Source: Escherichia phage vB_EcoM_WFbE185
Reading direction: 5' to 3' (one strand)
DNA length: 64,000 bases
Sequence record: MK373778.1
In this document: piece after piece, positions 8,383 to 47,117 of the stretch
Position numbering within the stretch: the stretch's first letter is position 1
Layout of the letters: every line of letters begins with the position of its first letter
The notes under the pieces: model-generated
Told to the model about the DNA's origin: nothing
Seen by the model: the letters and a program-made list of their open reading frames with translations, nothing else
Databases searched by the model: none
Program-made: the position numbers and the translations under genes

Positions 8383-8384
8383 CA

Positions 8385-8910: not shown

Positions 8911-8940
8911 ATTATACTCCAACCATCCTTGGTTGTAAAC
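8911..8940 (-). promoter_or_regulatory. early promoter (-35 GTTTAC, -10 TATAAT) with 6-bp stem hairpin CAACCA-AGGA-TGGTTG in the spacer
   Basis: A 46-bp element identical to the one at 51135-51180. Confidence 0.55.
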
Positions 8941-8945
8941 TGGTT

Positions 8946-9623
8946 TTATCGCTGTTTTACACTTAACGGGTCAGGATTCTCAGGGACATCTTCAAGGCCA
9001 AGCGCATAACGCTGAGCATATTTTAACATCAAAATATCTTTAGCACAATCGTGAATACTATCATGGGCAACGAATCCTTTCAGCGTACCCATCGGTAATG
9101 GACACATACTTAATCCTCGTGTCAACGAGTAAGCTTCGATTGCCGTACGAATATCGCGTTGAGCCCAGAATTTAACCGGTTCTAATTTATCAGTATCAAT
9201 ATCTGGTTCAAGAACACCTTCATCACGATAGAGGTCACGAATCAAATCGACCAAGATCGGGAAGTCAAAGCTCATACCACGGCACCACATCTGTGATTTC
9301 CATTGGTCAACTTTATTAGCTCGACAATAATCTAAAAAGATTTTAATGCCTTCAAGCGTAGTGACATCGTCTTCAGACGGAGCCAAGTTTTTACGCGCTT
9401 CAGCCGATTGTTCTTTCCACCATTTCATAGTGGATTTAGCGAAAACTCGCTTCCCTTTCTGAGAAGCTAAATTAAATTTAATTCGCTTACCTCGTTGAAC
9501 AAGTTCTTCAAATGATTCAACAACTTCAGGGTCGGAATTATATGCAATAACCGCAAGGTCAATAACAGCCGCTTTTGATGTATTGCCGAATGTTTCAAAA
9601 TCTATAATAACATCAGTGCTCAT
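8946..9623 (-). CDS. dexA: exonuclease A (DEDDh 3'-5' exonuclease)
   Basis: 225 aa; VIIDFETFG motif; size and position match T4 DexA next to dda. Confidence 0.8.
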   Translation of the reverse strand: MSTDVIIDFETFGNTSKAAVIDLAVIAYNSDPEVVESFEELVQRGKRIKFNLASQKGKRVFAKSTMKWWKEQSAEARKNLAPSEDDVTTLEGIKIFLDYCRANKVDQWKSQMWCRGMSFDFPILVDLIRDLYRDEGVLEPDIDTDKLEPVKFWAQRDIRTAIEAYSLTRGLSMCPLPMGTLKGFVAHDSIHDCAKDILMLKYAQRYALGLEDVPENPDPLSVKQR

Positions 9624-9632
9624 AATTTTCTC

Positions 9633-10946: not shown

Positions 10947-11254
10947 CGTAAAGTCCCTGCAATTGGAATACTAACAATACGGCCTGTGTCCAGAATTCGT
11001 TGATACAATCTTTGCGTCTCCGCATCTAGTTTAACGTGTTTCATTTCAAGCTTATTAAACCAAAACTTACGCGGAGTTTCGACCATTCTTAGAACTCCCA
11101 TTTTTAAATCTGTTTTATACTGTGTTTTCAAAGTATCGAAAACTTTATCTGCAATATCCTTTCTAAAAAATACTGCAGGACGATGCTCATCAAGTGGAAC
11201 CGGGACAGTAAATCCTTCCATATCTCGATAAACTATTGCATATACATAAACCAT
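10943..11254 (-). CDS. hypothetical protein (dda.1 position)
   Basis: 103-aa ORF overlapping dda start by 4 nt. Confidence 0.45.
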   Translation of the reverse strand: MVYVYAIVYRDMEGFTVPVPLDEHRPAVFFRKDIADKVFDTLKTQYKTDLKMGVLRMVETPRKFWFNKLEMKHVKLDAETQRLYQRILDTGRIVSIPIAGTLR

Positions 11255-11256
11255 AA

Positions 11257-12003
11257 TTAACCTTTAATCAGTTGGAATAATGATGCGCTAAGTGGTAAGC
11301 CACGTTTCAATTTTAATTTACCAATGAAACCAATCTTTTCAAAACGTTGCAGACCTTGGATAACTTTATCATATGTATCGAAAAGCGATTCAGCGTCAGT
11401 TAATTTAGTTTTAGTTTTCCAGTCAGAGCCTTTAAGAAGAACGTTGAGTTTAGTAAGTTCATGGCCTTCTGCTTGATGTGAGCCATTAATGCGTGCTTTC
11501 AAAGCAACAATTCTAAGTTTAGATTCGTTAGATAAAGGTTGATTTTTCATCATGTTCGCCATATGCTTAACACGATTTTCACGTTTTGCTCGTATTTTTA
11601 AAATAGTATCATAAACCTTTTTAATTTGGGCCCATTTCTTCTCGTCGAGATTAAGTTTCTCTACTTTACGGGCAGAAGGATTAGCAATACGTCTTGCAAC
11701 AGCGTCACGTTTCTCAATAAGTTCTTCTAATGTTAAATCAGAACGAGCCGTGTTATATTTTTTCTTAACTGGGATAACATTACCTTTAATGTAGCCGATA
11801 TCGTTATTAAAACGTTCTAAGGATAATTTCTCACCTTCAACAGAGTTATTGAAAGATTCGCCTGAGTAAGCGCAGACCTTTTGATCAAGAATGTTTTTAA
11901 GGTAATTAAAGTCTAAGTTAAAATCCTTAGAGCGTCTCTTCGCAGAAGCTCTGGTGTGGTCAAGACGACGATTGATTTTGTTAATTTTATTATTTGATAA
12001 CAT
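11257..12003 (-). CDS. basic hypothetical protein (248 aa), positional counterpart of T4 srd
   Basis: Size and position only; contains SLERFNNDIGYIKGNVIPV, which loosely resembles an HNH-like motif. Confidence 0.4.
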   Translation of the reverse strand: MLSNNKINKINRRLDHTRASAKRRSKDFNLDFNYLKNILDQKVCAYSGESFNNSVEGEKLSLERFNNDIGYIKGNVIPVKKKYNTARSDLTLEELIEKRDAVARRIANPSARKVEKLNLDEKKWAQIKKVYDTILKIRAKRENRVKHMANMMKNQPLSNESKLRIVALKARINGSHQAEGHELTKLNVLLKGSDWKTKTKLTDAESLFDTYDKVIQGLQRFEKIGFIGKLKLKRGLPLSASLFQLIKG

Positions 12004-12053
12004 AATATTTTCCTCTGTCTTACGGACGTTAAGGTCATTTAGCTGATAAGTCT

Positions 12054-12082
12054 ATAATATCATGCCCTCAGGTAGTGTACAC
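12054..12082 (-). promoter_or_regulatory. early-type promoter (-35 GTGTAC, -10 TATTAT)
   Basis: Same consensus family; upstream of the 248-aa gene with SD GAGGAAA. Confidence 0.5.
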
Positions 12083-12097
12083 TCTTTTTTCGTAAAA

Positions 12098-12123
12098 TGC
12101 TTTAATTTTTTATGTGTTATAAT
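12098..12123 (+). promoter_or_regulatory. plus-strand middle-promoter-like element (MotA box TGCTTTA, 13 bp, TGt-TATAAT)
   Basis: aaaTGCTTTAattttttatgTGtTATAAT read on the plus strand, pointing antisense into the ADP-ribosyltransferase gene. Confidence 0.4.
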
Positions 12124-12156
12124 GGTTCTGAGTTCCATCCGGTTATTCCAATTCAG

Positions 12157-12765
12157 TCAGTAACTGACAATAGACAGATTCCAGATTGTATAACGTCCAT
12201 CTTGAATAATAGAATCTACACGCAGTGTAGTCCCTATAGGGAGCATAAATTCACATTCGTCGGATATAAGTCTAGCATTAGACCGTCTTGTCGCTTCAGG
12301 GAAAGCTCCATTGAACTCACAAGATGGCGCAGCCAGAATCATGTTAAGCATATGTTCACGGAAGTTGAAAGCAAATGGTGCATCTTTGATGCAGAACATA
12401 TTAAATGTTCCGTAAAAATTATACGAAGCAAAGTTACGTGCTACACCGAACACTGGGCTGAAGCTCATTACTCTGTCAAATTTAATAATACTACCAATGC
12501 CTTTATCATCGAGTGCGGCCATAGTTTTCTTAGAGATTCCACGATACATTGTCTCAGGAACAGAAGACGTCCAATTTCTACGAACGATTGAACTTAACTC
12601 CTGTTGAATACAGTCTGGCTTGTTTTCCATACACTGCCACAGTACACTTTGTTCAATGTCACTGAATTGACTATCAATTTCATACTGCAATTCATCTTGA
12701 TATTCAGGGTTTTGAGCACGACGAACCATTTCTTCAATTTCACACTCGTTATACGGCATAAACAT
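12157..12765 (-). CDS. ADP-ribosyltransferase, ModA/ModB family
   Basis: R-S-ExE triad: YRGIS, SFSPV, ECEFMLP; 202 aa, comparable to T4 ModA/ModB. Confidence 0.7.
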   Translation of the reverse strand: MFMPYNECEIEEMVRRAQNPEYQDELQYEIDSQFSDIEQSVLWQCMENKPDCIQQELSSIVRRNWTSSVPETMYRGISKKTMAALDDKGIGSIIKFDRVMSFSPVFGVARNFASYNFYGTFNMFCIKDAPFAFNFREHMLNMILAAPSCEFNGAFPEATRRSNARLISDECEFMLPIGTTLRVDSIIQDGRYTIWNLSIVSY

Positions 12766-23857: not shown

Positions 23858-24406
23858 TTAACGAGCCCATTTGATGATTTCTGTAATCAAACCATTACGT
23901 TCGCTTGCATTAAATCCTATAACTTTGTTAGCACCATCATGATTAAGTAATTGATATGTTTGGATTTTGTTATGAATTGCAAACTCTTCAAAATGTGAAA
24001 TGACTGTATTAAAACCGAATGAAGACAAAGTAATAAGGTCGTCTTCAAAACTTTCAGTCATTTCGTTACGTGTTAAAATAATTGTGAACACATCATGGTT
24101 TTGGCAAAGACGAACATAGTCCTGTTCATAAACGTCAAGAATCGAGTCCGCATCTTGTCGAATACGTCCATAAACCCAGTTACTAATATATCCACGGTCT
24201 AACAGATAAATCTTAGTAGGGTCTAAATAATTCAACATCGTTTCGAAACAGCCAACTTCATTTCGAGACTTAACATCGAAACGCCCATCAACTGTTCGTT
24301 TAGGGAAATCAATCTTTACATATCTTTCACTAATTTCCATTATGTCATTAATGAAAGTTGTTTTACCAGCATTATCTGGGCCATCTACTAAAATAATTTT
24401 AGCCAT
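23858..24406 (-). CDS. P-loop nucleoside/nucleotide kinase-like protein (182 aa)
   Basis: Walker A VDGPDNAGKTT resembling thymidylate-kinase-type P-loops; occupies the T4 segA/beta-gt slot. Confidence 0.5.
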   Translation of the reverse strand: MAKIILVDGPDNAGKTTFINDIMEISERYVKIDFPKRTVDGRFDVKSRNEVGCFETMLNYLDPTKIYLLDRGYISNWVYGRIRQDADSILDVYEQDYVRLCQNHDVFTIILTRNEMTESFEDDLITLSSFGFNTVISHFEEFAIHNKIQTYQLLNHDGANKVIGFNASERNGLITEIIKWAR

Positions 24407-24407
24407 T

Positions 24408-25307
24408 TTATTCCTCGATTACGACATCTTCGTATTTAGGTATATTATACGGCGAAGAAATTAAAGCATTAAAGTAGATGAACTCACCAAGACCTGGATG
24501 GAATACTTCTTCAGGATTTTCGAAATATTGAATTTTCGGACGCCCTTTAAGAATTTGATAGTACTCTGTTTTAGTTGGTTTAAAAATTCGAATCAGCGCT
24601 TCTTCAGGATACTTATTTCTGTCGAAGCTATTATTTGGATCGGTTATATAAAGCGGTTGGCCTAATTGAATTGCACATTCAACCACTTGTTCAAAACGAT
24701 AGCACGGGTCACTAATTCGAAATGGATGAAAAATACCATCTAGATGAATAGTAGCCAAATCACCTACAAGACGCTGCATGATGGAAGGACGTATAACTTT
24801 CTGCGTTACGATAATCTTATTACCATCTGCACCGGCGTTAACCAGCACTTCTTTTTGACGTTCATTCAACACAGTAGTTTGAAGTGAACGATTAACCGAC
24901 AACATGTCGGTTTTTAAGAATTCGTCAATATAAAAACGTGGTTTATTAGGGTCTGCAGTGATATTGAAATTGAATTCTACGTCAAAAGCGCCATCATATC
25001 CAGTGATATCTGTGATTAGAAAATCACAATCATAATAAGCAATTAATGAATCAACCACAAATTCATTTTCAGACCAGAAATATTTACGAGTGTTATACGC
25101 GTTATCTTTATACCATAATGGAACAAACTTAAATTCTGGGAAAAGACGTTCACATTCTCTAATATCAGATGCATTACGTGGATATGTAATCACATCACCT
25201 GGATTAGCACGGTGCAAATGAAGTTGGAAGTTGCCATCCTTAAGGATAGCATACTGTCCAGTTTCATAAGACCGCATACTCAAGATAGGTACGCGGAAAA
25301 TAGCCAT
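24408..25307 (-). CDS. hypothetical protein (299 aa) at the T4 beta-gt position
   Basis: No motif recognised; location between uvsX and gene 42 is where T4 has beta-glucosyltransferase. Confidence 0.5.
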   Translation of the reverse strand: MAIFRVPILSMRSYETGQYAILKDGNFQLHLHRANPGDVITYPRNASDIRECERLFPEFKFVPLWYKDNAYNTRKYFWSENEFVVDSLIAYYDCDFLITDITGYDGAFDVEFNFNITADPNKPRFYIDEFLKTDMLSVNRSLQTTVLNERQKEVLVNAGADGNKIIVTQKVIRPSIMQRLVGDLATIHLDGIFHPFRISDPCYRFEQVVECAIQLGQPLYITDPNNSFDRNKYPEEALIRIFKPTKTEYYQILKGRPKIQYFENPEEVFHPGLGEFIYFNALISSPYNIPKYEDVVIEE

Positions 25308-26023
25308 TAGTCAAGAAATCCTTTAACATAATCAAAATCACGTTCAAACACATGGGCACTTACCATGGTATGAGTATAATCACCAACTTCTACACCACAT
25401 TCGTTAGCGATATAATGAAGTAATTTTCCTTGGAGATAAAAATCCAACTGCATAACAACAGCGCAGTTCTGAGAACGCATATGACAGTGGGTATAAAGCT
25501 TACCATCACGAATATAATAAGTCACTGAGTCAGTACATGGATATTCAAGCGTTTCGTCCGAATCAAGCAAAGCCTGATCAGAACTTTCTAGAATTTGGAA
25601 CACAACTCTTCGAGAGTTAGGCTTCTCTTTAAGTTCTTTTAGAAGAGCTGGTAATTGGGCCGCAATGCGAGGACCGTAGAAAGTGTTGAAGTTCGCAGGC
25701 AAAGCATCTGATTTTGGTTTAGAAATAAATTTAGCGACATTAGGATATGCCTTAAACGCTTCTTCTGCATCAGTACCACCAGAAATCATAAACTTCCAGA
25801 AGTCTTCGGCATATTCATAAGAGATGCGGTTAATACGTGGGTCGGTCATTTTGAATGATGATGGAGTGTCAACAACTACTGTCATAGACCCAATTTCATT
25901 ACAACGTCCAATACGAGAATCAGTTACGAATTCCGGGTTTTCTAAAATTTCACGATTGACTGCTTTAAATGCGGTTTGAAAATCTGCGGCTTTGATATAT
26001 TTCATTGTGTTATGTTTTCCCAT
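25307..26023 (-). CDS. 42: deoxycytidylate 5-hydroxymethyltransferase (thymidylate synthase family)
   Basis: 238 aa; NSRRVVFQ, YPCTDSV (catalytic Cys) and HMRSQN align with T4 gp42/TS motifs. Confidence 0.7.
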   Translation of the reverse strand: MGKHNTMKYIKAADFQTAFKAVNREILENPEFVTDSRIGRCNEIGSMTVVVDTPSSFKMTDPRINRISYEYAEDFWKFMISGGTDAEEAFKAYPNVAKFISKPKSDALPANFNTFYGPRIAAQLPALLKELKEKPNSRRVVFQILESSDQALLDSDETLEYPCTDSVTYYIRDGKLYTHCHMRSQNCAVVMQLDFYLQGKLLHYIANECGVEVGDYTHTMVSAHVFERDFDYVKGFLD

Positions 26024-26042
26024 GTTTACCTCAATACAATTT

Positions 26043-26066
26043 ATTATATACTCAATTCGTAAAGCT
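26043..26066 (-). promoter_or_regulatory. middle-promoter-like element for gene 42 (AGCTTTA, 11 bp, TATAAT)
   Basis: MotA-box-like motif and TATAAT upstream of gene 42 SD GAGG. Confidence 0.35.
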
Positions 26067-26305
26067 TATTTGAATTTCTTGACAATGTTGATATAACGTA
26101 AAGCTTCAGCATCGATACTTCCAAGAACACTATGAAGAAATGCATCAGCGTAGTATTCCAATTGAACAGGTTCTTTAATCACTTTAGCCGCTTTAGTTTC
26201 AAACAGGCCCATCAGGGCCTTTTTAAGAATTTGTTCATTAGTGTTCAGTTTAATAGTCAAAATCTCTTCATTAAGTTGGTGGTTAAAAGTTTTTCTAGAA
26301 ATCAT
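26066..26305 (-). CDS. hypothetical protein (79 aa)
   Basis: ORF in operon context. Confidence 0.4.
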   Translation of the reverse strand: MISRKTFNHQLNEEILTIKLNTNEQILKKALMGLFETKAAKVIKEPVQLEYYADAFLHSVLGSIDAEALRYINIVKKFK

Positions 26306-27477
26306 TCCGGGTACCTCAAAGCGTCATCAGAGTTAGTTATATCAATAATAGATATAGAGTTTTCTGCTAACCCGTTTTTAGATAATTGACGTTTATAATA
26401 TCTTTCACAATATGTACACGTCGTCCCGCAGATTTCATTAGCACAATCGAAATCTGGATGTCTGAACCACCTTTTTTCTAAAAAGCCATCTAACAAAGAG
26501 GTTTCAATATTTACTGTATGTGAAAACTCGGTCTCATTTTCAAGAGTGAAAATAGTCTCTAAAGGCTTCCACAGTTCTAACAAATTACCTTCAAACTTTT
26601 CAGAAGCGTATGCTTCAAGAACTTTCAAAATGTAGTCTGTGCTACCTGTACGTCCTGAAACTTTGAATTGAGTGATACCAATATCATTATAAAGTTTCAA
26701 ATCTTGAGGACGAACAAAACGAGTTCTCAGCCAGTTAAATGGGTCTGTATCACGAGCTTTAATGCAGTGTTGCATTGGATATCCATTTAAGGATTTAGCA
26801 TCATCAGCGGTAACATCAGTACTATGGAAAATATAGCAAGAGTCACGATAGCTACAATGTGTTGTATACCCTTTACCAGCATTAGAACAGAACTCATTTA
26901 CAAGAACTTCAAATATTATATTGTTCTTATTGCAAAACTCTGCTGCACGCTTCAGGAAAGAAACTGAACGGTTCTTATGAATTCCGCAGCAGACCTTTTT
27001 GATATTATACTGGTCATGCAAGTATTTGATTTGAGTTACAGCATCGACATGTAGAATTGTTGAAACTTCAATCTCAATGTCTTTATTGACTTCACGAACA
27101 ATTTCCATAACAACAGGGTTAGCGATAGTAATACGCCATACGCCTATTGACCAAAGATACTGAACATAATCCTGAATAGCTTTCTTCTTCCACTCAACTA
27201 GTTCTCTTTTTGAACCAGGATTTATCGTGTTGAGTGTATAGTTAAAGCAAATACCTAATTCGTTACAACGTTTAACGTAATCTTCTAACATCTTTTTGTC
27301 AACGTCAGGAAGCCTAAAATCAGGTCTGGCTGCTACAAAAGCCATTTCTCTTGTAGAGCCGTATACTTCGTTTATCAAGCTATTAGGATAAGTTTTATTG
27401 AGCTCTACGATTTTATCAAGAAGAGCTAAATCAAAATTCGTTCCAATTTTAAAAGTATTCATTTTTTTGCATCTCAC
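26302..27477 (-). CDS. hypothetical protein (391 aa, Cys-rich), part of the sugar-modification cassette
   Basis: No confident family; Cys cluster FCSNAGKGYTTHCSYRDSC and C-terminal CGTTCTYCERYY; weak resemblance to peptidase-U32-type fold only. Confidence 0.5.
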   Translation of the reverse strand: MRCKKMNTFKIGTNFDLALLDKIVELNKTYPNSLINEVYGSTREMAFVAARPDFRLPDVDKKMLEDYVKRCNELGICFNYTLNTINPGSKRELVEWKKKAIQDYVQYLWSIGVWRITIANPVVMEIVREVNKDIEIEVSTILHVDAVTQIKYLHDQYNIKKVCCGIHKNRSVSFLKRAAEFCNKNNIIFEVLVNEFCSNAGKGYTTHCSYRDSCYIFHSTDVTADDAKSLNGYPMQHCIKARDTDPFNWLRTRFVRPQDLKLYNDIGITQFKVSGRTGSTDYILKVLEAYASEKFEGNLLELWKPLETIFTLENETEFSHTVNIETSLLDGFLEKRWFRHPDFDCANEICGTTCTYCERYYKRQLSKNGLAENSISIIDITNSDDALRYPE

Positions 27478-27518
27478 GTTAATTGATGCGATGGTTTTTG
27501 CAGGTCTTACTTAAATTA

Positions 27519-27920
27519 TTATAGATTCGGTTTATATGATTTAAATGTTTCGAATTCGCCTTTATTCATAAGAGCTTTGAATTCGTCAGGACGCATAGCT
27601 TTGTCGTCGATAATCCAATCATATACTGGTTTATGTGTTAGCAAATTATGGTACTTCAAACCAATGTTTTCCAAGTTCTGAATCAGACTTGGGAGAATGT
27701 CAATTGCTATACGACCAGGACCTACTGACTTCATACCGCGAGCAGTGTAAAGCGTTATGGTATGCCCTGCATCATACAGGGCATTAATGGCAGACACCAT
27801 TTCGACGTCCGGTTTGAAGTTCACGTAATCACGATTGTTATTCCACTCTGTTATACAATCGTCGACATCAAAACAAAGATTAAGCATGTTTTCTACACGG
27901 TGCATTAGATTCGTTCCCAT
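27519..27920 (-). CDS. HAD-superfamily phosphatase (sugar-phosphate phosphatase-like)
   Basis: 133 aa; HAD motif I FDVDDCIT (DxD); small KdsC/GmhB-like size. Confidence 0.55.
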   Translation of the reverse strand: MGTNLMHRVENMLNLCFDVDDCITEWNNNRDYVNFKPDVEMVSAINALYDAGHTITLYTARGMKSVGPGRIAIDILPSLIQNLENIGLKYHNLLTHKPVYDWIIDDKAMRPDEFKALMNKGEFETFKSYKPNL

Positions 27921-29645
27921 TGATGAGTGATATCGCCACCGATTGGACGATAGGAAACACCAGTTTCTTTATCAGTTAGTACCCATTTACCAGGATTTTT
28001 TGTAATCAGAGTAGCCGTTACAGGTTCTGCTACGTCATAACTAATAGAGCCGTCCTGAAGTACACGGCCCATGTTACGTAATTGCTTAGTCAGAAGTTCC
28101 ATGCCTTTATAATATGCGGCTACAGCTTTAAGTGGATTATTCTTGAAATAACCACCTAATGCAATCCAGATAATTGCTACAGCCAAATGATGATATTCAT
28201 TAAACGAACTCAGCTTTCCATATTTGTAAACTAATGGATTGATGTTAATAGTCACATTACAAGTTGTTTCATCAATAGTAAACTGTCCCCAGGTCGGATT
28301 AGCGTTGAATTCATCATAACCTGAAACAGCATAAAGCACTTTAGCTTCATCATACAATTTTGGCCCGTAAATCTTGGTTTCGCCAAAATATCCACGAGGG
28401 TCGATAAACTTGACTTCGCCATTATCAGTAATCATAGTATTACTGAAGTTCGGGTCACCATGAATAACAGAGTACTGTCCCTGAGAACGGTTATGATAAC
28501 GAATAAGGTGTTCTAAAGCTTGTTTCAGCATTGGCTTCAGACGTCCAATCTTAGTGTAGTTCACGTGTGTGATTTTACCAAATGAATCAATCAATGGTTG
28601 AATGCTTTCACAACGATCAATAACTTTCGTATAGAATTCTTTAGTGAAATCACGACGAACAGTTTCAGGACTTACAAAATAAGTGTCTGTGCTGAATTTC
28701 AGTGCATCTAAAATCGCATCAACAATTTGTGGACGAGCAAGACTTGATTTGGATTTAATATATTCAAATGCTGGCTTACCTTTAATGCGTTCCATTTCAA
28801 AGTTATTTTCATTAACAGAAACTAACTGAGGAACTGAATCTGATTTCACTTTCAAATACCACGAAATCTCATCTTTCTGAAGAGCTCGACCCTGTTCGGT
28901 TAATGCGAATTTAGTTACAGTTTCTTCACCAATTTCAACTGCATTAAAACTACGATTAAGTTCACGAACTTCATGGGCTTTTTCAAGTTTAGGCATATCA
29001 CCTAAATCAATTAGATTCATAAGCTCTGATTTATTGAATGCGCTGCCGTAAAGGAATTCTACGAAATCACGTCCTTTGCAGTATTCATGAATTTCCTCAT
29101 CGGTAGAACCCATATAGAATTCCCAGTCTTTGAACTGATAAATTCCTACAACATTACCGCCTGTTTCACCTACATTAGTGATATTTTCACCATCGAAATT
29201 ATACCGACATTCATCACCCTTAACATAGATTGCGTTAACATTCCAAGACCATGAACCAAAATCGGGAATAATATCACACCAGTTAACAATTACGTTATGG
29301 CCGTCTAAATCTTTGTGTAATTTAGCAAGAGCATAAGCAGAACCGTATGCTTCATCAACTGTACGAATAGTCACATTGAACCCTTCTTGCTCACAATAAG
29401 CTCGCTTCATCAACTGTACGAATAGTCACATTGAACCCTTCTTGCTCACAATAAGCTCGAACAGTTTCAGCAAATTTTGAATGAACTACTACAATAATTT
29501 CATCTGCGCCAAGGTCAGAATAAATTGTATACAAATTGCTCAGAATAGTGTCTTGTTTATAGTTAACAAGCACCTTAGGAATATGATGCGTTATTGGATA
29601 TAAACGAGTTGCCAATCCAGCACCAAGAATAACAGCTTTTTTCAT
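27905..29645 (-). pseudogene. bifunctional sugar-1-phosphate nucleotidyltransferase / APH-fold sugar kinase, reading frame broken by a 55-bp tandem duplication
   Basis: N-terminal fragment (29391-29645) has the NTase signature ILGAGLATRL; C-terminal ORF (27905-29413) has kinase motifs HGDPNFSNTMI and FIDPRGYFG; both fragments contain RAYCEQEGFNVTIRTVDEA; deleting one repeat copy restores a 561-aa ORF. Confidence 0.65.
29350..29459. repeat. perfect direct tandem duplication, 2 x 55 bp (cttcatcaactgtacgaatagtcacattgaacccttcttgctcacaataagctcg)
   Basis: Two identical adjacent 55-nt copies at 29350-29404 and 29405-29459; 55 is not a multiple of 3, so the nucleotidyltransferase gene is frameshifted. 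Confidence 0.9.
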
Positions 29646-29686
29646 GTTGAAGTCCTCATTGGTAAGTAGGAGTATTGTACACTATT

Positions 29687-29830
29687 CTAGTTAAAGCATT
29701 CATACTTTGCTTGTAGTCCAATCATAATCCATCCAATTACAAGTGGTGGAATCATTACTGGAGCCGTTAAGCTCCAGTAGATAGTCATGACAAGCATCAA
29801 TAGTAAAAGTCCTATTGTTATTGCTTTCAT
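29687..29830 (-). CDS. small hydrophobic membrane protein (47 aa), not in ORF track
   Basis: MKAITIGLLLLMLVMTIYWSLTAPVMIPPLVIGW...; ATGA start/stop overlap with the SIS gene. Confidence 0.4.
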   Translation of the reverse strand: MKAITIGLLLLMLVMTIYWSLTAPVMIPPLVIGWIMIGLQAKYECFN

Positions 29831-30462
29831 TGTTCGCCTCGTAACATGGCACCTAGTGCACCGCCTGGATGGAACTTAAGGAAATCATTAGAGGTAAATC
29901 CACGTTCAGACGAAAGGTTGATAGCAAACGTATCGATAAGTGCTAACAACAATGTAGTAGACATTGTCGGAGCTAAAGAGTTCTCGTCAACTTCTACCGC
30001 GATACCGGTACAGAACGTATAATCAAAAAGAGCTTCGTATTCTTGTGGAATGTCAGGGTTACAATGTAACAGAATCTGTTTAACCTGAGGACGAATCATA
30101 CGAAGATGTTTAGCAACACCTATCATTTCTTCAGTCTTACCAGAACGGCTGATGTGAACTAATACATCATTAGGTGCAATAAATCCTGCGTCACCATGAG
30201 AATAATGCCCAGTGTTCAAGTACATACTTGGGATACCGAGTGAAGCAAAAGTCTCGGAAGCTTTAGTTGCGATATTAGCGTTCTTACCAACACCTGTAAT
30301 AATTACACGACTTTCATAATTACTCAGTCCAGGGCGACGAAGAGTTTCAAGAATAGCATTATACCGAGCAGGGTTTTGACTAATTACTTTAGCCATAGTG
30401 GCAAGAGATGAAGCTTGTTTTACGATTGCGTCAATAGCGATAGTGATTGGTGTAGTTTTCAT
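29827..30462 (-). CDS. SIS-domain sugar-phosphate isomerase (arabinose-5-phosphate/phosphoheptose isomerase-like)
   Basis: 211 aa; SIS signature VIITGVGKNANIA and SRSGKTEE. Confidence 0.65.
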   Translation of the reverse strand: MKTTPITIAIDAIVKQASSLATMAKVISQNPARYNAILETLRRPGLSNYESRVIITGVGKNANIATKASETFASLGIPSMYLNTGHYSHGDAGFIAPNDVLVHISRSGKTEEMIGVAKHLRMIRPQVKQILLHCNPDIPQEYEALFDYTFCTGIAVEVDENSLAPTMSTTLLLALIDTFAINLSSERGFTSNDFLKFHPGGALGAMLRGEQ

Positions 30463-30496
30463 ATTTCTCTCATTTAATTAGTTGGCCGTCCTTGGC

Positions 30497-30505
30497 ATTA
30501 TATCA
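30497..30505 (-). promoter_or_regulatory. extended -10 element TGA-TATAAT (the TG comes from the gene 43 stop codon)
   Basis: TATAAT abutting the polymerase TGA stop, about 35 nt upstream of the SIS gene ATG; no good -35. Confidence 0.35.
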
Positions 30506-33214
30506 AAAATCAAACATATCGAACAGAGATGCTTTCTTCTCGTAATCGAGTTTAGCTGCTGATGTGAATCCTTCAAGTGGTTTAATAAATGTCTTCTCAA
30601 GGAGAACAGTGTAGTCCATCCAATGAAGTACATCGTCTTTAATTAAATCTGTGATTTCAGTACCAGAAGGCCATGCGATACATTTATCACCGAACGGGTT
30701 TCCATCACGTAAAGGCAGAACGTATACCTTTTCGCCTTCTACAACTTGTGGAGCATCAATATTACCTTTGATAGCTCGGTTATATGTCAGAATTCCACGA
30801 ATATGGAACGGGCATTTAGGTCCTGGATATCCACCTACATCATATTTAGCAATGTTATTCGCAGAAGATACCGACGCGATGCTAATATAATTCAATTGAC
30901 GGAATTCTTTTTCAAACTCTTTAAAATATTCTTGTAATGATTCTTCACCTTCTTGAAGCATACGACGAATACATTCTTTAAGAGCTTTCTGTACTGCTTT
31001 AGGGGTCGAAGATTTCTGAGTTTCTAGACCCATGATTTTGAGTTTAGGCTCAGCGTAACGAGTACCTTCCATATCCCACACGTTTAATGCATAACGTTTC
31101 TTACCAGTCCAAAATCCGCCAATACCTTTAGAACCGAGCGGAGGACCAGCGATAGCTTCTCGGTCCATGAACATTAAGTGTTGTTTATTGTTCATGTATT
31201 CACACATTTCACGGAAACCTTTATCAATAGCTGGTTCCATACGTTCACGTGCAAACTTATCTAAGAAGTCTACCCAATGGTTGGTATCACGGAATTTAGA
31301 TTCACCAACCTTATCAATAATTTTATCCGCAGATACGTAAATGGAGTCTGTATCACCATAAAGAACGAAAGCTTCACCTTCTGTACCACAAACTTCATTC
31401 AGATATTCATTAACTTTACGTTCAATCCACTGTAAAGCCATTTGCCCGAATGTTGTGATTGCAGTAGCATTACGCAAATCATAATAACGGAACCAAACGT
31501 TGCCAAGTGCACCATAAAGTGAGTTGATGAGCAATTTACGGTTAATTTGTGCAGTCATACCTGCAACTTCAGTACGTTGAGCTCTAAACAACATTTCATT
31601 AAGAGATTTAGCAGACAACTTTTTAATCTTTTCTTTAATCTCATCGCTGAAGTCGAAACGATAATCAACATCTAATGGTTCGTCAACAGAAAGATTAGGA
31701 TTATGCAATGCCTCTTTAATTATTTCACCATTACGTTGAGCTGCAAGCATGTAACCTTTATGTTCTTTACGTTGATTAAAGACCTTAGTGATTTCAGTTG
31801 GAACTACACCATCACGGTCTTTATAATACATCATGCCGTTAGGAGAACAACTGTACACATCTGAAGGACGTTCAGCGATTGCGTTAATATAATCATGTAA
31901 TGGAGCTACTTTAAACGTTCCTGCTATTGTTTCTGGGCTAATATTCACTTGGCGAATGATGCTTGGATACAGAGATGTAAGGTCGAAACTCATTACATAT
32001 TTGTATCGATTTGGAATAGGTTCCTTAACAAAAGCGCCAGGATAAGGTTGAACCGGGTGAGAACGACCTTGTGGAATCACCTTGTTCTGCTCTTTAAGGC
32101 TATTAAAAATAATAGCATCCCATGTTTTAATTGGGCTAAACACAGATTGAATCTGTATCTTAGCATAATAACCCATGTCCAAACTCAAGTTGATGAACTG
32201 ACGCTTAGCATCAATTTGCAATACACGATACACGTCGATAATGTTATAAGAAATATATCGTTGGTGATTGCTTTCACGAAGCTTAGAAATAGGGCCGTCG
32301 TATTTCAGTTTACCAACGTTCAATTCAAATTCTGAAATGTAATCCAGAGAATACGACGGTTGATTGGTAAAAGAGAATTTTTTGTAAAGGTCAATGTAAT
32401 CAAGAACAGAGATACCGAACAATGTAATGATTTCACGAGAACCATACATGTTTTCGATAACTTTAACACGAGTTTTACGATGCGGTGATAAACGTTTCGC
32501 AGTAGATTCGCCAAAAATATTCTTGATTCGGTTATACACATATGGAATATCAAATGACTCAACGTTCCATCCAGTCAAAATGACAGGAGTTTTCTGTTGC
32601 CAGAAGTTGAGATATTCCATCAACAATTCTTTTTCGTTATTGAATGGCATATAAATGATTTTATCGATAATTTCGGATGGAACTTCATCACCGCCTTGTT
32701 CTTGAAGCTTAGCAGCGATTTCAATAGACCATTCTTCTACATTACCATACGGAGAATTCAAAAGGTCAAATACATAAAACCTGTCATCAATTGAGTCATA
32801 ATGGGTGATAGCATCAATCGGATGTTTTGCTTGTGACGGCTCAGGGAACCCATCCGGAGATGTTACTTCGATGTCGAAGTTAGCCACACGAATTTTTGTA
32901 TGGTCGTATTTGATTTCATAGTTATAAGTGTCAGACAAATACGCCAATTTGAAATCGTCCATGCCGAGTGCTTCAAGTCCGATATCTTCCATGCGTTTAA
33001 TCCATTGGGAGGCATCACGCATATTAGCGAACAACTTACGAGTACACGGCTTACCGTAGATATCGAAATATTTCGTAGCCTGACTTTCCGGACAATGAGC
33101 AAACAGTGATGGTTTATATTCTACTTCACGAGTACGTTCACGGCCATTAGAATCGATGTAACGTTCAAAAATTGAATCACCAATCTGTTCAACCGTTAAG
33201 TAAAATTCTTTCAT
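30503..33214 (-). CDS. 43: DNA polymerase gp43 (family B), 903 aa
   Basis: Exo motifs FDIEV and YNIIDV; pol motifs SLYPSII, KILINSLYG and YGDTDS; length and N-terminus MKEFYLTVEQIGDSIFERYIDSNGRERT match my recollection of RB69 gp43. Confidence 0.95.
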   Translation of the reverse strand: MKEFYLTVEQIGDSIFERYIDSNGRERTREVEYKPSLFAHCPESQATKYFDIYGKPCTRKLFANMRDASQWIKRMEDIGLEALGMDDFKLAYLSDTYNYEIKYDHTKIRVANFDIEVTSPDGFPEPSQAKHPIDAITHYDSIDDRFYVFDLLNSPYGNVEEWSIEIAAKLQEQGGDEVPSEIIDKIIYMPFNNEKELLMEYLNFWQQKTPVILTGWNVESFDIPYVYNRIKNIFGESTAKRLSPHRKTRVKVIENMYGSREIITLFGISVLDYIDLYKKFSFTNQPSYSLDYISEFELNVGKLKYDGPISKLRESNHQRYISYNIIDVYRVLQIDAKRQFINLSLDMGYYAKIQIQSVFSPIKTWDAIIFNSLKEQNKVIPQGRSHPVQPYPGAFVKEPIPNRYKYVMSFDLTSLYPSIIRQVNISPETIAGTFKVAPLHDYINAIAERPSDVYSCSPNGMMYYKDRDGVVPTEITKVFNQRKEHKGYMLAAQRNGEIIKEALHNPNLSVDEPLDVDYRFDFSDEIKEKIKKLSAKSLNEMLFRAQRTEVAGMTAQINRKLLINSLYGALGNVWFRYYDLRNATAITTFGQMALQWIERKVNEYLNEVCGTEGEAFVLYGDTDSIYVSADKIIDKVGESKFRDTNHWVDFLDKFARERMEPAIDKGFREMCEYMNNKQHLMFMDREAIAGPPLGSKGIGGFWTGKKRYALNVWDMEGTRYAEPKLKIMGLETQKSSTPKAVQKALKECIRRMLQEGEESLQEYFKEFEKEFRQLNYISIASVSSANNIAKYDVGGYPGPKCPFHIRGILTYNRAIKGNIDAPQVVEGEKVYVLPLRDGNPFGDKCIAWPSGTEITDLIKDDVLHWMDYTVLLEKTFIKPLEGFTSAAKLDYEKKASLFDMFDF

Positions 33215-38610: not shown

Positions 38611-38839
38611 TACACGCTTCAGCCATTTTAAGAATAGAGCCAGGAGTATCGTTGTCCATTATATTAAAGCTAAATTCAATAGCCCAGTCGGTGCAGACAT
38701 GAACTGCTTTAACTTCATTGCCTTCAACGTGTAATGGCTCAATCCAATACTTGATAGTGTTCTCGAATCCATCATCATCTTTAATGTCTATTTCAACTTC
38801 AAGCCCGAGCCCAGCATTGTTAAATTCATCTAAAGTCAT
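38582..38839 (-). CDS. hypothetical acidic protein (85 aa)
   Basis: ORF in operon context. Confidence 0.45.
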   Translation of the reverse strand: MTLDEFNNAGLGLEVEIDIKDDDGFENTIKYWIEPLHVEGNEVKAVHVCTDWAIEFSFNIMDNDTPGSILKMAEACIEDAYNDED

Positions 38840-39855
38840 TGTGTTGCCTCAATATAAAGTTCGTTGGAATATTTGACCAGTGCTTCTCTGTCTTCGTCTG
38901 AGATATCTGGAATCGCGTCAATATATTCTTTAATGATATCTTGAAGTGATTTAATCTCGATTTCCTGGTCGTCATCAGATTCAACATTGTTATCAACTTT
39001 AGAAACCATACGAAGAGAGTGAACTACTTTTTCAAGTTCAGATTCAAACTTAGTCAACTCTGAATCAATTTCTGATACTATAACACGTACGGCTAGATTA
39101 GTATAATCAGAATAATTGATTTTGCCTTTAAACGGATAAGTGATTCGTCGATGCCATGTTGTTTCATTAGGAATAAATTCCATACGTTCAACATCAGTAT
39201 CAAATACCCAGAATCCGCGCGGGTCGTTCTCATCGCCTGCAGTAAGGGTCCATGGTGTCCCAATATATTTGACGTTAGCAGCTTCAGAGATTGTGTGGAA
39301 GTGGCCAGACCAGACTTGTTTATAGGTCTTTAAGAAATCAGGTTCAAGCCCATGAGACTTCATTCCTTTATAGAAATAAAAGCCATTCAGTTCCCAGTGC
39401 CCAACACAATACGCTGCGGAAGAAGTCTTGATGTGCTCTAAGATTTCACCTGTATTTTCTTCACACATCCATGGAACGATATCAATCAGACATCCGTCAA
39501 AATCTACAGTAGTCGGATGCTCGTAAATAGTAAAGTTTTCAAATTGAGTTAACAATTCAGAAACAGTGTTAGGTGTTATTGTATTCTTAAACGCCATGTC
39601 ATGGTTTCCTATCGTGACATGAACGTGAATGCCTGCTTTAGAAATCATATCAACGATTTCACGATTGAATTCCATTGTACGATGTGTTATTGCTTTACGG
39701 ACGTCAAACCAATCACCGTACTGAATCCAAGTTTTAATCCCGTGTTTCTTAGAGTATTCAATTGCTTGTTGAATACCATCACGTTGAATATCTTGAACCC
39801 ATGGGTCGTCTTGTTTGACTCCGATATGGAAGTCGCCTAAGTGCAAAATTTTCAT
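38836..39855 (-). CDS. 47: recombination endonuclease subunit gp47 (Mre11/SbcD-like)
   Basis: 339 aa; phosphoesterase motifs MKILHLGDFHIG, GDWFD, GNHD, GHWE; same length as T4 gp47. Confidence 0.9.
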   Translation of the reverse strand: MKILHLGDFHIGVKQDDPWVQDIQRDGIQQAIEYSKKHGIKTWIQYGDWFDVRKAITHRTMEFNREIVDMISKAGIHVHVTIGNHDMAFKNTITPNTVSELLTQFENFTIYEHPTTVDFDGCLIDIVPWMCEENTGEILEHIKTSSAAYCVGHWELNGFYFYKGMKSHGLEPDFLKTYKQVWSGHFHTISEAANVKYIGTPWTLTAGDENDPRGFWVFDTDVERMEFIPNETTWHRRITYPFKGKINYSDYTNLAVRVIVSEIDSELTKFESELEKVVHSLRMVSKVDNNVESDDDQEIEIKSLQDIIKEYIDAIPDISDEDREALVKYSNELYIEATQ

Positions 39856-39926: not shown

Positions 39927-40098
39927 ATCCACATAGTACACCGTACAGAGGCTCATTTGAACTTTTAAATCGAATGGGCTTGTACGTAATAGTTCCTTCG
40001 GCTTTAGCTTTATCATAAGACTCTTTAAAACGTCTCATTCTTTCTGCTTTGCCTTTACGGATTTTATCGAAATTTTCAGAAGTCGGGATGTTCGTCAT
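39925..40098 (-). CDS. small basic protein (57 aa), not in ORF track
   Basis: MTNIPTSENFDKIRKGKAERMRRFKESYDKAK...; stop overlaps the terminator stem. Confidence 0.35.
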   Translation of the reverse strand: MTNIPTSENFDKIRKGKAERMRRFKESYDKAKAEGTITYKPIRFKSSNEPLYGVLCG

Positions 40099-44832: not shown

Positions 44833-45303
44833 TTAATCATGTTTCCACACCCCATCGGTATTTGACCAAAGTCGCTGATTATCTGATCCTCGCCACAGCT
44901 TTTTAGTCGGAAGATTTTTCTCATACTTCCCATCAATAATAACATCAACATATTTAAGCATTTCTAGTTGTTTAATATCTTCAAACTTATATCCTGTCCA
45001 CAACCAAATGCTTTTATTGGGATAAAGATTTTTTACTGTTTGAGCAATGCAATGAATAACATCTCGGTTATCAGGATAGAGAGGGTCACCTCCGGTTATA
45101 GTTAATCCTTCTATATAATCATTATTCAAACATTCAATTAATTGTTCTAGTGTTTCACCAGTGAATGGAACACCATTTCTAGCATTCCATGTTGATTTAT
45201 TATAACACCCTTCGCATTTATGCAAACAACCCGTAACGAAAAGAACGACCCTGCATCCGGGGCCATTCACAAAATCGCAAGGATAAAATCTATCATAATT
45301 CAT
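44833..45303 (-). CDS. nrdG: anaerobic ribonucleotide reductase activating protein NrdG (radical SAM)
   Basis: 156 aa; CLHKCEGCYN (CxxxCxxC); directly downstream of nrdD. Confidence 0.85.
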   Translation of the reverse strand: MNYDRFYPCDFVNGPGCRVVLFVTGCLHKCEGCYNKSTWNARNGVPFTGETLEQLIECLNNDYIEGLTITGGDPLYPDNRDVIHCIAQTVKNLYPNKSIWLWTGYKFEDIKQLEMLKYVDVIIDGKYEKNLPTKKLWRGSDNQRLWSNTDGVWKHD

Positions 45304-47117
45304 TGGTGTTTAACCCTATGCATGATTTCTTTATTTTTACCGAGATTAAATCCGCGTTCGTTCGGATTTCCCAAATAACCGCATGTTCTTCTTATGGTGT
45401 TCATCTTTTTAGGATCAGTTTCTCCACAAATAGAACAAACAAATCCGTTTTCAGTAGGAGTCATTTCATGGGTACTTCCACATGTAAAACATTTATCCAC
45501 TGGCATATTAACACCAAAATAATCTAAATGTTGTGCAGCATAATCCCAGACGGCCTCAAGCCCCTTTAAATTGTTTTTCATATCTGGAAGTTCAACATAA
45601 GAAATGTGACCGCCGGTCGCTATGAAATGATAAGGAGCTTCACGAGAAATTTTTTCAAACGGAGTAATATTTTCTTCTACTGAAACATGGAAACTGTTAG
45701 TGTACCAGCCTTTATCTGTAACATCCTTTACACTTCCATATTTTTCTGTATCAAGTTTACAGAAGCGATAACAAAGGTTTTCAGCAGGAGTAGAATATAA
45801 ACTAAAAGCAAATCCAGTTCTTTCAGACCACTGTTTAAGATGAGCATTCATTTTAGTTAAAATTTCTTGCCCAATATCACGACCAACAAGAATATTCAAT
45901 TCGTGAATACCAATGTATCCTAAAGACACTGAACTTCTACCGTTTTTAAATAACTCAATTATGTCGTCATCAGGTTTAAGACGAACCCCGAATGCACCTT
46001 CTTGGTAAAGAATAGGAGCAACAGTCGCTTTAACTCCTTTTAAGGAACTAATTCTACACATCAAAGCTTCAAAACACAGGTCCATTCGTTCGTTAAATAG
46101 CTCAACAAATTTCTGTTCATTGAACTGTGTTCCAATATAAGAATCTAACGCAATACGAGGAAGATTCAGTGTTACAACACCAAGATTATTACGTCCATCA
46201 AGAATTTCATTGCCAGTCGAATCTTTCCATACACTCAAGAAACTACGGCAGCCCATTGGAGAAACAGGAACTGAAGAACCGGTAATAGCTTTATTATTCT
46301 TAACCGAAATAATGTCAGGATACATTCTTTTGCTTGCACATTCTAACGCAAGTTGTTTAATATCATAGTTCGGATCATCTTTATAAAGATTAACACCTTC
46401 TTCAACAAACATAACAAGTTTAGGAAAAATAGGAGTTATTCCATCACGACCAAGACCTTTAATGCGGTTTTTAAGAATTGCCTTCTGAATCATTCGTTCA
46501 GTCCAGTCAGTTCCCGTACCAAATGTAATTGTTACAAAAGGCGTTTGTCCGTTTGAACTAAAGAGAGTATTTACTTCATATTCATAAGCTTGGAACGCGT
46601 CATAGACATCTTTTTCTGTTTTGGATTGAGCATAATTCAACGCATCAGCAATTTGCCATTTTTCTGCATCTTCAACATGTTTAGCGTATGTGCGTTTAAC
46701 ATAAGGAGAAAGAACTTTATCGACATTCGCAAATGTAGTTCCGCCATACTGGTGTGAAGCAACTTGTGCGGTAATTTGTGCCATAATTGCAGTAGCAACG
46801 CCAATAGATTTAGGCGTTTCAATTTGAGCATTGCCTAATTTAAATCCATTCTCAAGCATCCCCTTTAAATCGACTAAACAGCAATTGGTAAACGGAAGAG
46901 CAGGAGAATAATCAATATCATGCATGTGAATGATTCCGCTTTCATGCGCATTCATAATAAAAGACGGGACCATATTTTTGGCAATGTGCTTAGACACAAT
47001 ACCAGCCATAAGGTCCCGTTGAGTTGGAAAAACACGAGAATCTTTATTAGCATTCTCGTTCAAAAGATCTTTATTAGTTTTATAAATTAATCCTTCAATT
47101 TCTTTTTCAATTTTCAT
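45300..47117 (-). CDS. nrdD: anaerobic ribonucleoside-triphosphate reductase NrdD (uninterrupted)
   Basis: 605 aa; C-terminal glycyl-radical motif RRTCGYLG and zinc ribbon CFTCGS...CSICG; no intron. Confidence 0.9.
   Translation of the reverse strand: MKIEKEIEGLIYKTNKDLLNENANKDSRVFPTQRDLMAGIVSKHIAKNMVPSFIMNAHESGIIHMHDIDYSPALPFTNCCLVDLKGMLENGFKLGNAQIETPKSIGVATAIMAQITAQVASHQYGGTTFANVDKVLSPYVKRTYAKHVEDAEKWQIADALNYAQSKTEKDVYDAFQAYEYEVNTLFSSNGQTPFVTITFGTGTDWTERMIQKAILKNRIKGLGRDGITPIFPKLVMFVEEGVNLYKDDPNYDIKQLALECASKRMYPDIISVKNNKAITGSSVPVSPMGCRSFLSVWKDSTGNEILDGRNNLGVVTLNLPRIALDSYIGTQFNEQKFVELFNERMDLCFEALMCRISSLKGVKATVAPILYQEGAFGVRLKPDDDIIELFKNGRSSVSLGYIGIHELNILVGRDIGQEILTKMNAHLKQWSERTGFAFSLYSTPAENLCYRFCKLDTEKYGSVKDVTDKGWYTNSFHVSVEENITPFEKISREAPYHFIATGGHISYVELPDMKNNLKGLEAVWDYAAQHLDYFGVNMPVDKCFTCGSTHEMTPTENGFVCSICGETDPKKMNTIRRTCGYLGNPNERGFNLGKNKEIMHRVKHQ

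Follow-up and report, generated by a model that had tools for sequence, protein, structure and literature searches.

A U32-family protein as a candidate oxygen-independent hydroxylase in the arabinosyl-5-hydroxycytosine cassette of an RB69-like phage

Arabinose was detected in the DNA of phage RB69 by Thomas 2018, who proposed ORF055c and ORF53_52c as the UDP-arabinose genes and ORF003c as the transferase. Mass spectrometry (MS) and NMR later identified the base in RB69 and in Acinetobacter phage DLP3 as mono- and poly-arabinosylated 5-hydroxycytosine (5hoC), with the sugar ether-linked to C5 (Lee 2026), and complete replacement of cytosine has been reported for RB69-type phages. The DNA of NicPhage contains 5-ara-dC and 5-ara-ara-dC at a ratio of 1:4. 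Regarding the enzymes, RB69 gp48 is a verified producer of 5-hydroxy-dCMP (5hodCMP) that uses a flavin cofactor and takes the oxygen from O2; gp55, gp52:53, gp51, gp46:47 and gp3 were given pathway roles, and gp45 is listed as the 5hodCMP kinase in Table 1 of the same work (Lee 2026). The biochemistry of AfhE and AfhF from phage HY126 comes from He 2026, in the form in which Lee 2026 cites it. Here, we examine the equivalent cassette, encoded on the minus strand, in 64,000 nt of Escherichia phage vB_EcoM_WFbE185 (MK373778.1; this whole stretch is called the window below), focusing on its U32-family protein, the only enzyme of the cassette still without a function, and on a 55-bp duplication that interrupts its AfhE gene.

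The cassette and its modified base

Over positions 26000-30600 the closest match is Escherichia phage NicPhage, with 98.7% nucleotide identity (megablast, 197 phage records matched), and 152 phage records cover at least 80% of the region. At the protein level, the identity to RB69 gp3, gp45, gp48, gp50, gp51 and gp55 is 97-100%, and the coordinates of rIIA and ORF003c are those of the RB69 record. By its DNA polymerase, rIIA and cassette, the window can be identified as the first 64 kb of the genome of a Mosigvirus, an RB69-like T4-type phage. We consider it highly probable that the region is a Mosigvirus (RB69-type) cassette replacing cytosine by arabinosylated 5hoC, a cassette already known from Thomas 2018 and then from Mahler 2025, He 2026 and Lee 2026.

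The original prediction, made from the letters alone, had taken the flanking gene for gene 42, a dCMP hydroxymethylase, and had an activated pentose attached to 5-hydroxymethylcytosine (hmC). The same base was the first proposal for RB69 (Thomas 2018), and several phage records annotate the ThyA homolog as a dCMP hydroxymethylase. However, the protein of the window is 100% identical to RB69 gp48, a 5hodCMP producer. It has an Asn at the position of E. coli ThyA D169 and an Asp at that of N177, with Cys146 kept, whereas T4 gp42 has D169. PDB entry 9IQC matches it at 4.5e-162, and 9IR2 and 9IQU are likewise near-identical. Moreover, MS and NMR of RB69 and NicPhage DNA found arabinose ether-linked to 5-hydroxycytosine, with arabinose-free hmC absent. 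Both the hydroxymethylase and the attachment to hmC had therefore to be given up, and we regard an hmC-based pathway as extremely improbable. The window likewise has neither mark of T4-type glucosyl-hmC, namely a retained D169 and alpha-gt and/or beta-gt: the alpha-gt slot is empty, gp47 (38839-39855) being followed directly by a-gt.2 (39928-40098), and the beta-gt slot is taken by another glycosyltransferase together with a kinase.

The pathway as we draw it is literature-based, taken from near-identical proteins (Table 1). The ThyA-like flavin- and O2-dependent synthase would hydroxylate dCMP at C5, and the thymidylate-kinase-like (TMK-like) kinase would phosphorylate the resulting 5hodCMP for incorporation into DNA. 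In parallel, the SIS isomerase would convert ribulose-5-phosphate to arabinose-5-phosphate, which the kinase domain of AfhE would turn into arabinofuranose (Araf)-1,5-bisphosphate, the HAD phosphatase into Araf-1-phosphate and the nucleotidyltransferase domain of AfhE into UDP-Araf. The two glycosyltransferases would then place first one and afterwards a second arabinose onto 5hoC in the DNA.

A U32 protein beside the oxygen-dependent synthase

The original prediction had singled out a 391-aa Cys-rich protein that could be a new enzyme of the pathway. The open reading frame (ORF) exists and is rich in Cys, although its length of 391 aa counts from a GTG; the likely start is the ATG at 27462, which gives 386 aa (MNTFKIG...), is the annotated start in Bas46 and agrees with where the homologs begin. 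The protein reaches 42.2 bits against Pfam Peptidase_U32, well above the gathering cut-off of 22.4, and an AlphaFold (AF2) model built from 26 homologs (pLDDT 89) has as its top PDB fold match 5D88, a U32 structure. By sequence, a search against the PDB gave no match at E<=1. No named U32 subfamily was reached with the NCBIfam equivalog models (UbiU 18 bits against a cut-off of 440), and hhalign assigned a probability of 82% to RlhA and 4.6% to UbiU.

The cysteines are the most constant part of the protein. Across 121 homologs, down to about 48% identity, C163, C197, C208, C214, C238, C345, C350, C354 and C357 are invariant and C182 is 98% conserved, so that ten Cys stand at 98-100% overall. 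C208 and C214 align to the Fe-S motif of UbiU, RlhA and TrhP, in a register that differs between MAFFT and hhalign. C197, C208, C214 and C238 lie in the region of the [4Fe-4S] motif (C-x6-C-x15/16-C-x3/4-C or the UbiU variant), but their spacing, C197-x10-C208-x5-C214-x23-C238, departs from it, and four of the other residues form a separate C-terminal cluster, C345-x4-C350-x3-C354-x2-C357.

The U32 family has so far been linked only to O2-independent, prephenate-dependent hydroxylation. Its members RlhA (23S rRNA ho5C2501), TrhP (tRNA ho5U34) and UbiU/V (anaerobic ubiquinone) are tied to hydroxylation without O2, and prephenate has been shown to be the oxygen donor for UbiU/V; direct hydroxylase activity of U32 proteins in vitro has not been demonstrated. 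On the phage side, RB69 gp50 occurs in Lee 2026 as a table entry only, labelled 'sugar or heterocycle reductase'; the discussion there treats pyrimidine hydroxylation by RlhA and TrhP as unrelated to the ThyA-type synthase and does not mention that gp50 belongs to U32. The searchable literature, whose scope leaves out He 2026 and Mahler 2025, gave nothing relevant that ties U32, prephenate or chorismate mutase to phage 5hoC or arabinosylation.

We propose, with a confidence that lies at or slightly above an even balance, that the U32 protein is a second, O2-independent and prephenate-dependent C5 hydroxylase that would supply 5hodCMP in anoxia. Mechanistically, it would hydroxylate C5 of dCMP (less likely, of cytosine in DNA) with oxygen from prephenate, and would provide 5hodCMP in hosts without oxygen, in which the ThyA-type enzyme, being O2-dependent, cannot function. 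Prephenate would be secured by phage chorismate mutases or, in Mosigvirus, by the host PheA/TyrA. By analogy, the U32/ThyA-type pair would parallel UbiU/V versus UbiH/F/I, TrhP versus TrhO, and phage nrdDG versus nrdAB. The window itself encodes nrdG and nrdD (anaerobic ribonucleotide reductase) and a GrcA-like glycyl-radical cofactor gene (vs.6), at 44836-47117 and 62588-62947; these genes equip the phage for nucleotide metabolism in anoxia. As regards the 391-aa protein, the earlier suggestion that it could be a new pathway enzyme still stands, with the family pointing most plausibly to a prephenate-dependent hydroxylase.

The distribution of the gene is consistent with this proposal. A tblastn search for U32 matched 221 records of cultured phages, none of them below 80% identity; the hosts include Escherichia, Shigella, Klebsiella, Enterobacter, Serratia, Proteus, Providencia, Yersinia, Edwardsiella, Pectobacterium, Erwinia and Shewanella. 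For AfhE the count is 368 phage records, 57 of them from Acinetobacter phages; among the U32 matches listed, none comes from a phage of Acinetobacter, a strict aerobe, and in the cassette of Acinetobacter phage Apostate the HAD gene is followed directly by ThyA, without U32. A chorismate mutase is encoded beside the U32 gene in at least eight related genera. The Pfam model CM_2 scores above its gathering cut-off near U32 in Edwardsiella PEi26, Yersinia phiR1-RT, Proteus PM2, Erwinia Virsaitis27 and Shewanella Thanatos-2; the two genes are separated in Proteus PM2 by a homing endonuclease and a small ORF, and overlap by 4 nt in several other phages. Chorismate mutase homologs were found in 51 phage records, and all of their genera also appear in the U32 match list.

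Beyond the cultured phages, a total of 268 U32 relatives were found at E<=1e-3, and those at 45-58% identity lie mostly on viral contigs, among genes for dCMP deaminase, thymidylate kinase, UDG, dNK and NT5C. With the U32 profile we fetched 47 IMG/VR loci with flanks of up to 10 kb, comprising 15 T4-like and 32 distant ones. The full cassette, ThyA-type enzyme included, is present at all 15 T4-like loci. At the distant loci, homologs of GT1-like glycosyltransferase, arabinose-5-phosphate isomerase (API) or AfhE occur in 23 of 32, and homologs of the 24408-25307 glycosyltransferase stand directly upstream of U32. A sensitive hidden Markov model search detected no ThyA of the 5hodCMP-synthase type within the flanks of these 32 loci; the sole ThyA there is a canonical D169/N177 thymidylate synthase (L036).

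Two of the distant loci are informative. In one (IMG/VR UViG 3300045988_147269, L039), overlapping co-directional genes encode an NTP pyrophosphatase, a TMK-like kinase, a GT1-like protein, U32 and a GT47-like protein (under the Pfam cut-off), with no ThyA; by its gene content this is a T4-like module with U32 and without ThyA. The other (IMG/VR UViG 3300021256_000085, L045) has the order SIS, AfhE, TMK-like kinase, DAHP-synthase::chorismate-mutase fusion (DAHPS::CM), HAD and U32; the nearest cellular relatives of the fusion are Bacteroidota enzymes, which is only suggestive as to the oxygen lifestyle of the host. A further phage locus, on a 61-kb Logan contig (L018), carries at 3777-12179 a Gly_transf_sug gene, U32, a TET-associated glycosyltransferase (4e-8), a dUTPase/DCD-like gene and UDP-galactopyranose mutase, again without ThyA, and may encode a hexofuranosyl-hydroxypyrimidine system built on U32.

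These neighbourhoods also bear on two other roles for the protein. In the first, U32 would modify a sugar or a heterocycle, as a reductase or other tailoring enzyme, or be an accessory protein with no direct part in making 5hoC. Such a role would suit the reductase label of RB69 gp50 in Table 1 of Lee 2026, the TIM-barrel fold, which resembles that of many sugar-active enzymes, and the absence of U32 from Acinetobacter and Dhakavirus phages that still have the ThyA-type enzyme and AfhE. However, only Araf on 5hoC has been reported in RB69 DNA, with no reduced or altered sugar, and a reductase is unknown among characterised U32 members. Neither the repeated linkage to chorismate mutase or DAHPS::CM nor the presence of U32 in a kinase, glycosyltransferase and pyrophosphatase module devoid of ThyA would be explained, and we consider tailoring unlikely.

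In the second, U32 would hydroxylate tRNA or rRNA during infection, in the manner of TrhP or RlhA, and have nothing to do with DNA modification. The best profile match among characterised members is indeed RlhA, the 23S rRNA ho5C2501 synthase, and T4-like phages carry tRNA genes. Yet the U32 gene sits within the DNA-modification cassette in every T4-like genus examined, and in unrelated viral contigs it overlaps genes for GT1-like, TMK-like, NTP-pyrophosphatase, dCMP deaminase or TET-associated glycosyltransferase proteins. The long C-terminal extensions found in RlhA and TrhP are also missing from the protein. An RNA substrate is consequently quite improbable, well below the tailoring role.

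Several observations nevertheless weigh against an anoxic hydroxylase. The role is read from family, fold, Cys, neighbourhoods and distribution, and the mapping of the Cys ligands onto UbiU or RlhA is ambiguous. RB69 gp48 by itself is enough for 5hodC formation in aerobic E. coli, so U32 can be dispensed with, at least in air. A chorismate mutase gene is absent from Mosigvirus itself. The distant loci are seen only to 10 kb on each side, and a ThyX-like fragment lies near the L039 module. AnYang, an E. coli Dhakavirus (L007), has AfhE, HAD, a D169N ThyA and GT1, but neither U32 nor chorismate mutase, so U32 is not universal in phages of facultative anaerobes. Finally, the phyletic pattern comes from few clades and not from many independent events. 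Dhakavirus also lacks a phage arabinose-5-phosphate isomerase, and presumably uses the host KdsD/GutQ.

If the prephenate-dependent hydroxylase is nevertheless correct, it would matter in several ways. The published pathway hydroxylase needs O2, yet these phages replace all their cytosine and infect gut bacteria; an anoxic hydroxylase would explain their replication without oxygen. Prephenate-dependent hydroxylation would be extended from RNA and quinones to DNA precursors, and U32 would become a marker gene for glycosyl-5hoC phages that have no ThyA-type enzyme.

Other arrangements around U32 were also recorded. Two metagenome contigs of 86 kb and 24 kb (L005 and L006) carry a 49% identical U32 with an NT5C nucleotidase, an NMN transporter and a deoxynucleoside kinase, together with a radical SAM/SPASM protein, a second faint U32 and a nucleoside 2-deoxyribosyltransferase, with dockerin and GH43 genes on the contig as well; the group may be a deoxynucleoside-modification cluster of a cell or a prophage. 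On a phage contig with PolIII-alpha (L016, 7145-8804), the genes after U32 encode a stand-alone DAHP_synth_1 protein (248 aa), which could be a DAHP synthase or a KDO8P synthase (an arabinose-5-phosphate user), and an NAD-dependent epimerase. Seg-type homing endonuclease genes lie inside several cassettes (L002 4352-4990, L011 1852-2490, L012 1852-2490, L010 3714-4397), in the HAD/U32 gap in Winklervirus, Tegunavirus and Kanagawavirus and in the U32/chorismate mutase gap in Proteus PM2; the cassette of the window has none.

A 55-bp duplication in the AfhE gene

The sugar branch of the pathway is complete in the window except for one gene. The original prediction had foreseen a single bifunctional nucleotidyltransferase/kinase; the AfhE homolog is there, but it is not one ORF. 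A perfect tandem duplication of 55 bp, the only tandem repeat in the 64-kb window according to TRF, splits the gene into an 84-aa N-fragment (29391-29645) and a 502-aa ORF (27905-29413), which match positions 1-81 and 63-559 of PHROG 4098, respectively. The N-fragment contains the NTP-binding loop (NTP_transferase, 1.6e-9), while the C-fragment gave weak kinase-family matches. An intact AfhE-type kinase/UDP-Araf pyrophosphorylase of about 561 aa is accordingly missing from the window, and removing one 55-bp copy restores exactly such an ORF of 561 aa, 556 of which are identical to the Bas46 protein.

Provided that the sequence is correct, this frameshift should abolish or cripple UDP-Araf synthesis and leave naked 5hoC in the DNA. 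Two polypeptides could be made, since an in-frame ATG is present at 29410, 15 nt before the stop of the N-fragment; that a working nucleotidyltransferase would come from the split gene is doubtful.

The duplication could also be a sequence artefact, which would weigh against a natural loss of UDP-Araf. Here, an error of assembly, sequencing or editing would hide a real phage with an intact 561-aa AfhE and a working pathway. A 61-bp junction probe matched 153 related phage records, and the matches listed always consisted of two pieces and never of one contiguous stretch. In the whole-region megablast, which matched 197 records, all 30 of those listed aligned in two pieces, with spans about 50-56 bp shorter than the query; these spans do not fit an extra 55 bp, so none of the records listed holds one. 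Exact-product look-ups of both truncated AfhE fragments in public assemblies returned no record. An artefact would also agree with the repeat being the sole one in 64 kb, and with the lack of decay since the duplication, as seen from the 100% identity of the copies and the 99% identity of the repaired ORF to Bas46.

Assemblers, on the other hand, usually collapse tandem repeats and seldom create them, and short tandem duplications are common as spontaneous mutations in T4-type phages. The junction has a microhomology of 1 nt. Hosts with Type IV enzymes that attack arabinosylated DNA could moreover select for a loss of glycosylation; every modified DNA tested is cleaved by BrxU. An artefact is thus a real but lesser possibility, and our judgement leans slightly towards a real mutation. 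In case the AfhE frameshift is real, the phage is a ready variant for measuring the effect of unglycosylated 5hoC DNA on sensitivity to restriction, CRISPR and Type IV defence.

Taking both parts of the work together, the following combined picture is, in our estimation, balanced between right and wrong. U32 would have in these phages its first DNA-directed role, as a prephenate-dependent, O2-independent C5-hydroxylase of dCMP (or cytosine). It would back up the ThyA-type enzyme in enterobacterial and Shewanella T4-like phages, and would be the only hydroxylase for glycosyl-5hoC (or 5-hydroxyuracil, 5hoU) DNA in many uncultivated phages. The genome of the window would be a natural UDP-arabinose knock-out packaging naked 5hoC.

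Neighbouring genes and known systems

Table 1. Cassette and associated features, with positions counted from the first letter of the window
Feature	Position	Strand	Basis
RB69 gp3 (ORF003c) homolog, putative second DNA arabinosyltransferase, 366 aa	2520..3620	-	363/366 identical to gp3
Thymidylate-kinase-like nucleotide kinase, presumed 5hodCMP kinase	23858..24406	-	PHROG 761 1e-44; 179/182 identical to RB69 gp45
First DNA arabinosyltransferase, RB69 gp46:47 homolog, intact 299 aa	24408..25307	-	PHROG 3891 2e-155
Flavin/O2-dependent 5-hydroxy-dCMP synthase, ThyA superfamily	25307..26023	-	238/238 identical to RB69 gp48
79-aa small protein, RB69 gp49 family	26066..26305	-	PHROG 8601 3e-51; start overlaps U32 stop by 4 nt
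U32-family Fe-S protein (predicted), RB69 gp50 homolog	26302..27477	-	Pfam PF01136 Peptidase_U32 7.5e-11
HAD-like phosphatase, AfhF / RB69 gp51 homolog, 133 aa	27519..27920	-	PDB 9IQW 4e-87, 1XPJ 1.5e-10; TIGR01689 2e-13
AfhE homolog: N-terminal sugar-1-P nucleotidyltransferase + C-terminal kinase, RB69 gp52:53	27905..29645	-	Frameshifted; PHROG 4098
Perfect 55-bp tandem duplication, 2.0 copies	29349..29459	.	TRF: 100% matches, score 222
47-aa hydrophobic ORF	29687..29830	-	Translation MKAITIGLLLLMLVMTIYWSLTAPVMIPPLVIGWIMIGLQAKYECFN; ATG overlaps SIS stop codon
Arabinose-5-phosphate isomerase, RB69 gp55 homolog	29827..30462	-	Pfam SIS 8e-10; PHROG 5670 2e-116; 204/211 identical to gp55

Several further claims of the original prediction were confirmed. 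The minus-strand ORFs it had named are present where it placed them, imm and imm.1 are indeed the only genes between 42 and 43 in T4, and alpha-gt and beta-gt are absent, as said above. The isomerase has one SIS domain and no CBS domains, and scores against the NCBIfam models KpsF/GutQ (9e-32) and KdsD (4e-30), both under the curated cut-offs; the predicted SIS sugar-phosphate isomerase is thereby confirmed. The same applies to the HAD phosphatase, recognised through TIGR01689 and the two PDB entries even though a Pfam search of the 133-aa protein gave no match. Its AfhF-type relatives convert Araf-1,5-bisphosphate to Araf-1-phosphate, according to Lee 2026 citing He 2026. That an activated arabinose is made starting from ribulose-5-phosphate was already proposed for RB69 in 2018, and agrees with the HY126 AfhE/AfhF biochemistry as far as Lee 2026 relates it.

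The predicted GT-B enzyme at 2520-3620 stands as a close homolog of RB69 gp3, to which Table 1 of Lee 2026 assigns a GT-B fold, although Pfam and NCBIfam searches of the protein found no match. Together with the 24408-25307 protein, it would provide two putative DNA arabinosyltransferases, as in the RB69-type pathway. The 24408-25307 glycosyltransferase and the TMK-like kinase had been missing from the original prediction. In RB69, the splits between gp46 and gp47 (Lee 2026) and between 52 and 53 in the database record (Thomas 2018) are sequencing errors.

Two small ORFs complete the cassette. The 47-aa one, annotated at the same position as a hypothetical protein in Bas46 and in Erwinia phage Virsaitis27, probably encodes a small membrane protein, to judge from its hydrophobic translation; the different frame at 29700-29852 in the ORF list is probably spurious. 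The 79-aa protein is 45% identical to g049 of Yersinia phage phiR1-RT, sited there between the U32 gene and a true chorismate mutase. We discarded the idea that it is a decayed chorismate mutase: it has no CM_2 (PF01817) match even at E<=10, is only 14-19% identical to phage chorismate mutases, and in Yersinia, Pectobacterium and L035 phages members of its family occur alongside a true chorismate mutase. Dhakavirus AnYang has a 92-aa ORF upstream of ThyA, and this too was found to be unrelated to the 79-aa protein or to chorismate mutase.

The gp49-family gene always comes directly after U32 and overlaps it by 4 nt in Mosigvirus, Tegunavirus, Pectobacterium PM2 and one IMG/VR phage; the members outside the window lie at L011 3694-3891, L022 11140-11325 and L035 11152-11397. 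Winklervirus has longer chorismate mutases with an N-terminus (MRRINH.MNE) similar to that of the 79-aa protein, which suggests a past fusion or deletion between adjacent gp49-family and chorismate mutase genes. With respect to the cassette as a whole, promoter-like sites were rarer in a promoter and terminator scan than in shuffled sequences, the scan yielding no usable signal, and the transposon-mutagenesis preprint on LC53 and Bas46 reports no essentiality figures for its genes.

Among known systems, the pathway of RB69, Bas46, NicPhage and HY126 is the nearest, with the same genus, the same gene order and 97-100% identical proteins; API, AfhE-type, AfhF-type, U32, gp49, 5hodCMP synthase, GT1, TMK-like kinase and gp3 are all shared. 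The window departs from it by the frameshifting duplication in AfhE, unseen in the related records checked. The tri-arabosyl-5hoC cassette of the Acinetobacter phages DLP3 and Apostate (Twarogvirinae) has API, AfhE, HAD, D169N ThyA, GT1 and TMK-like kinase in the same order. In contrast, it has no U32, gp49-like ORF or chorismate mutase between HAD and ThyA, contains extra glycosyltransferases for the third arabinose, and belongs to phages of a strictly aerobic host.

The glucosylation of hmC in T4 follows the same logic, in that C5 of dCMP is the target of a ThyA-superfamily enzyme, the pool is supplied through a dCTPase and a kinase, and glycosylation takes place after replication; its genes also occupy the same genome position, between genes 43 and uvsX. 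Nevertheless, the base in the window is 5hoC instead of hmC, the cofactor is flavin/O2 and not folate, and the sugar is a phage-made UDP-Araf whereas T4 uses the UDP-glucose of the host; the alpha-gt and beta-gt slots are empty or replaced.

Regarding the hydroxylase proper, the E. coli proteins RlhA, TrhP and UbiU/UbiV share with the phage protein PF01136, the TIM-barrel fold, Cys in the motif region and a genetic link to prephenate supply, and RlhA and TrhP are linked to pyrimidine C5 hydroxylation, the chemistry needed for 5hoC. The phage subfamily stands apart from them, at about 16-21% identity, with altered Cys spacing and an extra C-terminal Cys cluster, and its substrate would be a deoxynucleotide and not RNA or a quinone. 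Finally, phage modules with TET/JBP and a TET-associated glycosyltransferase likewise combine a hydroxylating enzyme with a DNA base glycosyltransferase, and in the Logan contig (L018) U32 is followed by a gene of that same glycosyltransferase family. TET/JBP enzymes, however, depend on O2 and 2-oxoglutarate, and their substrates are 5mC or T in DNA, whereas U32 comes from an unrelated, O2-independent family.

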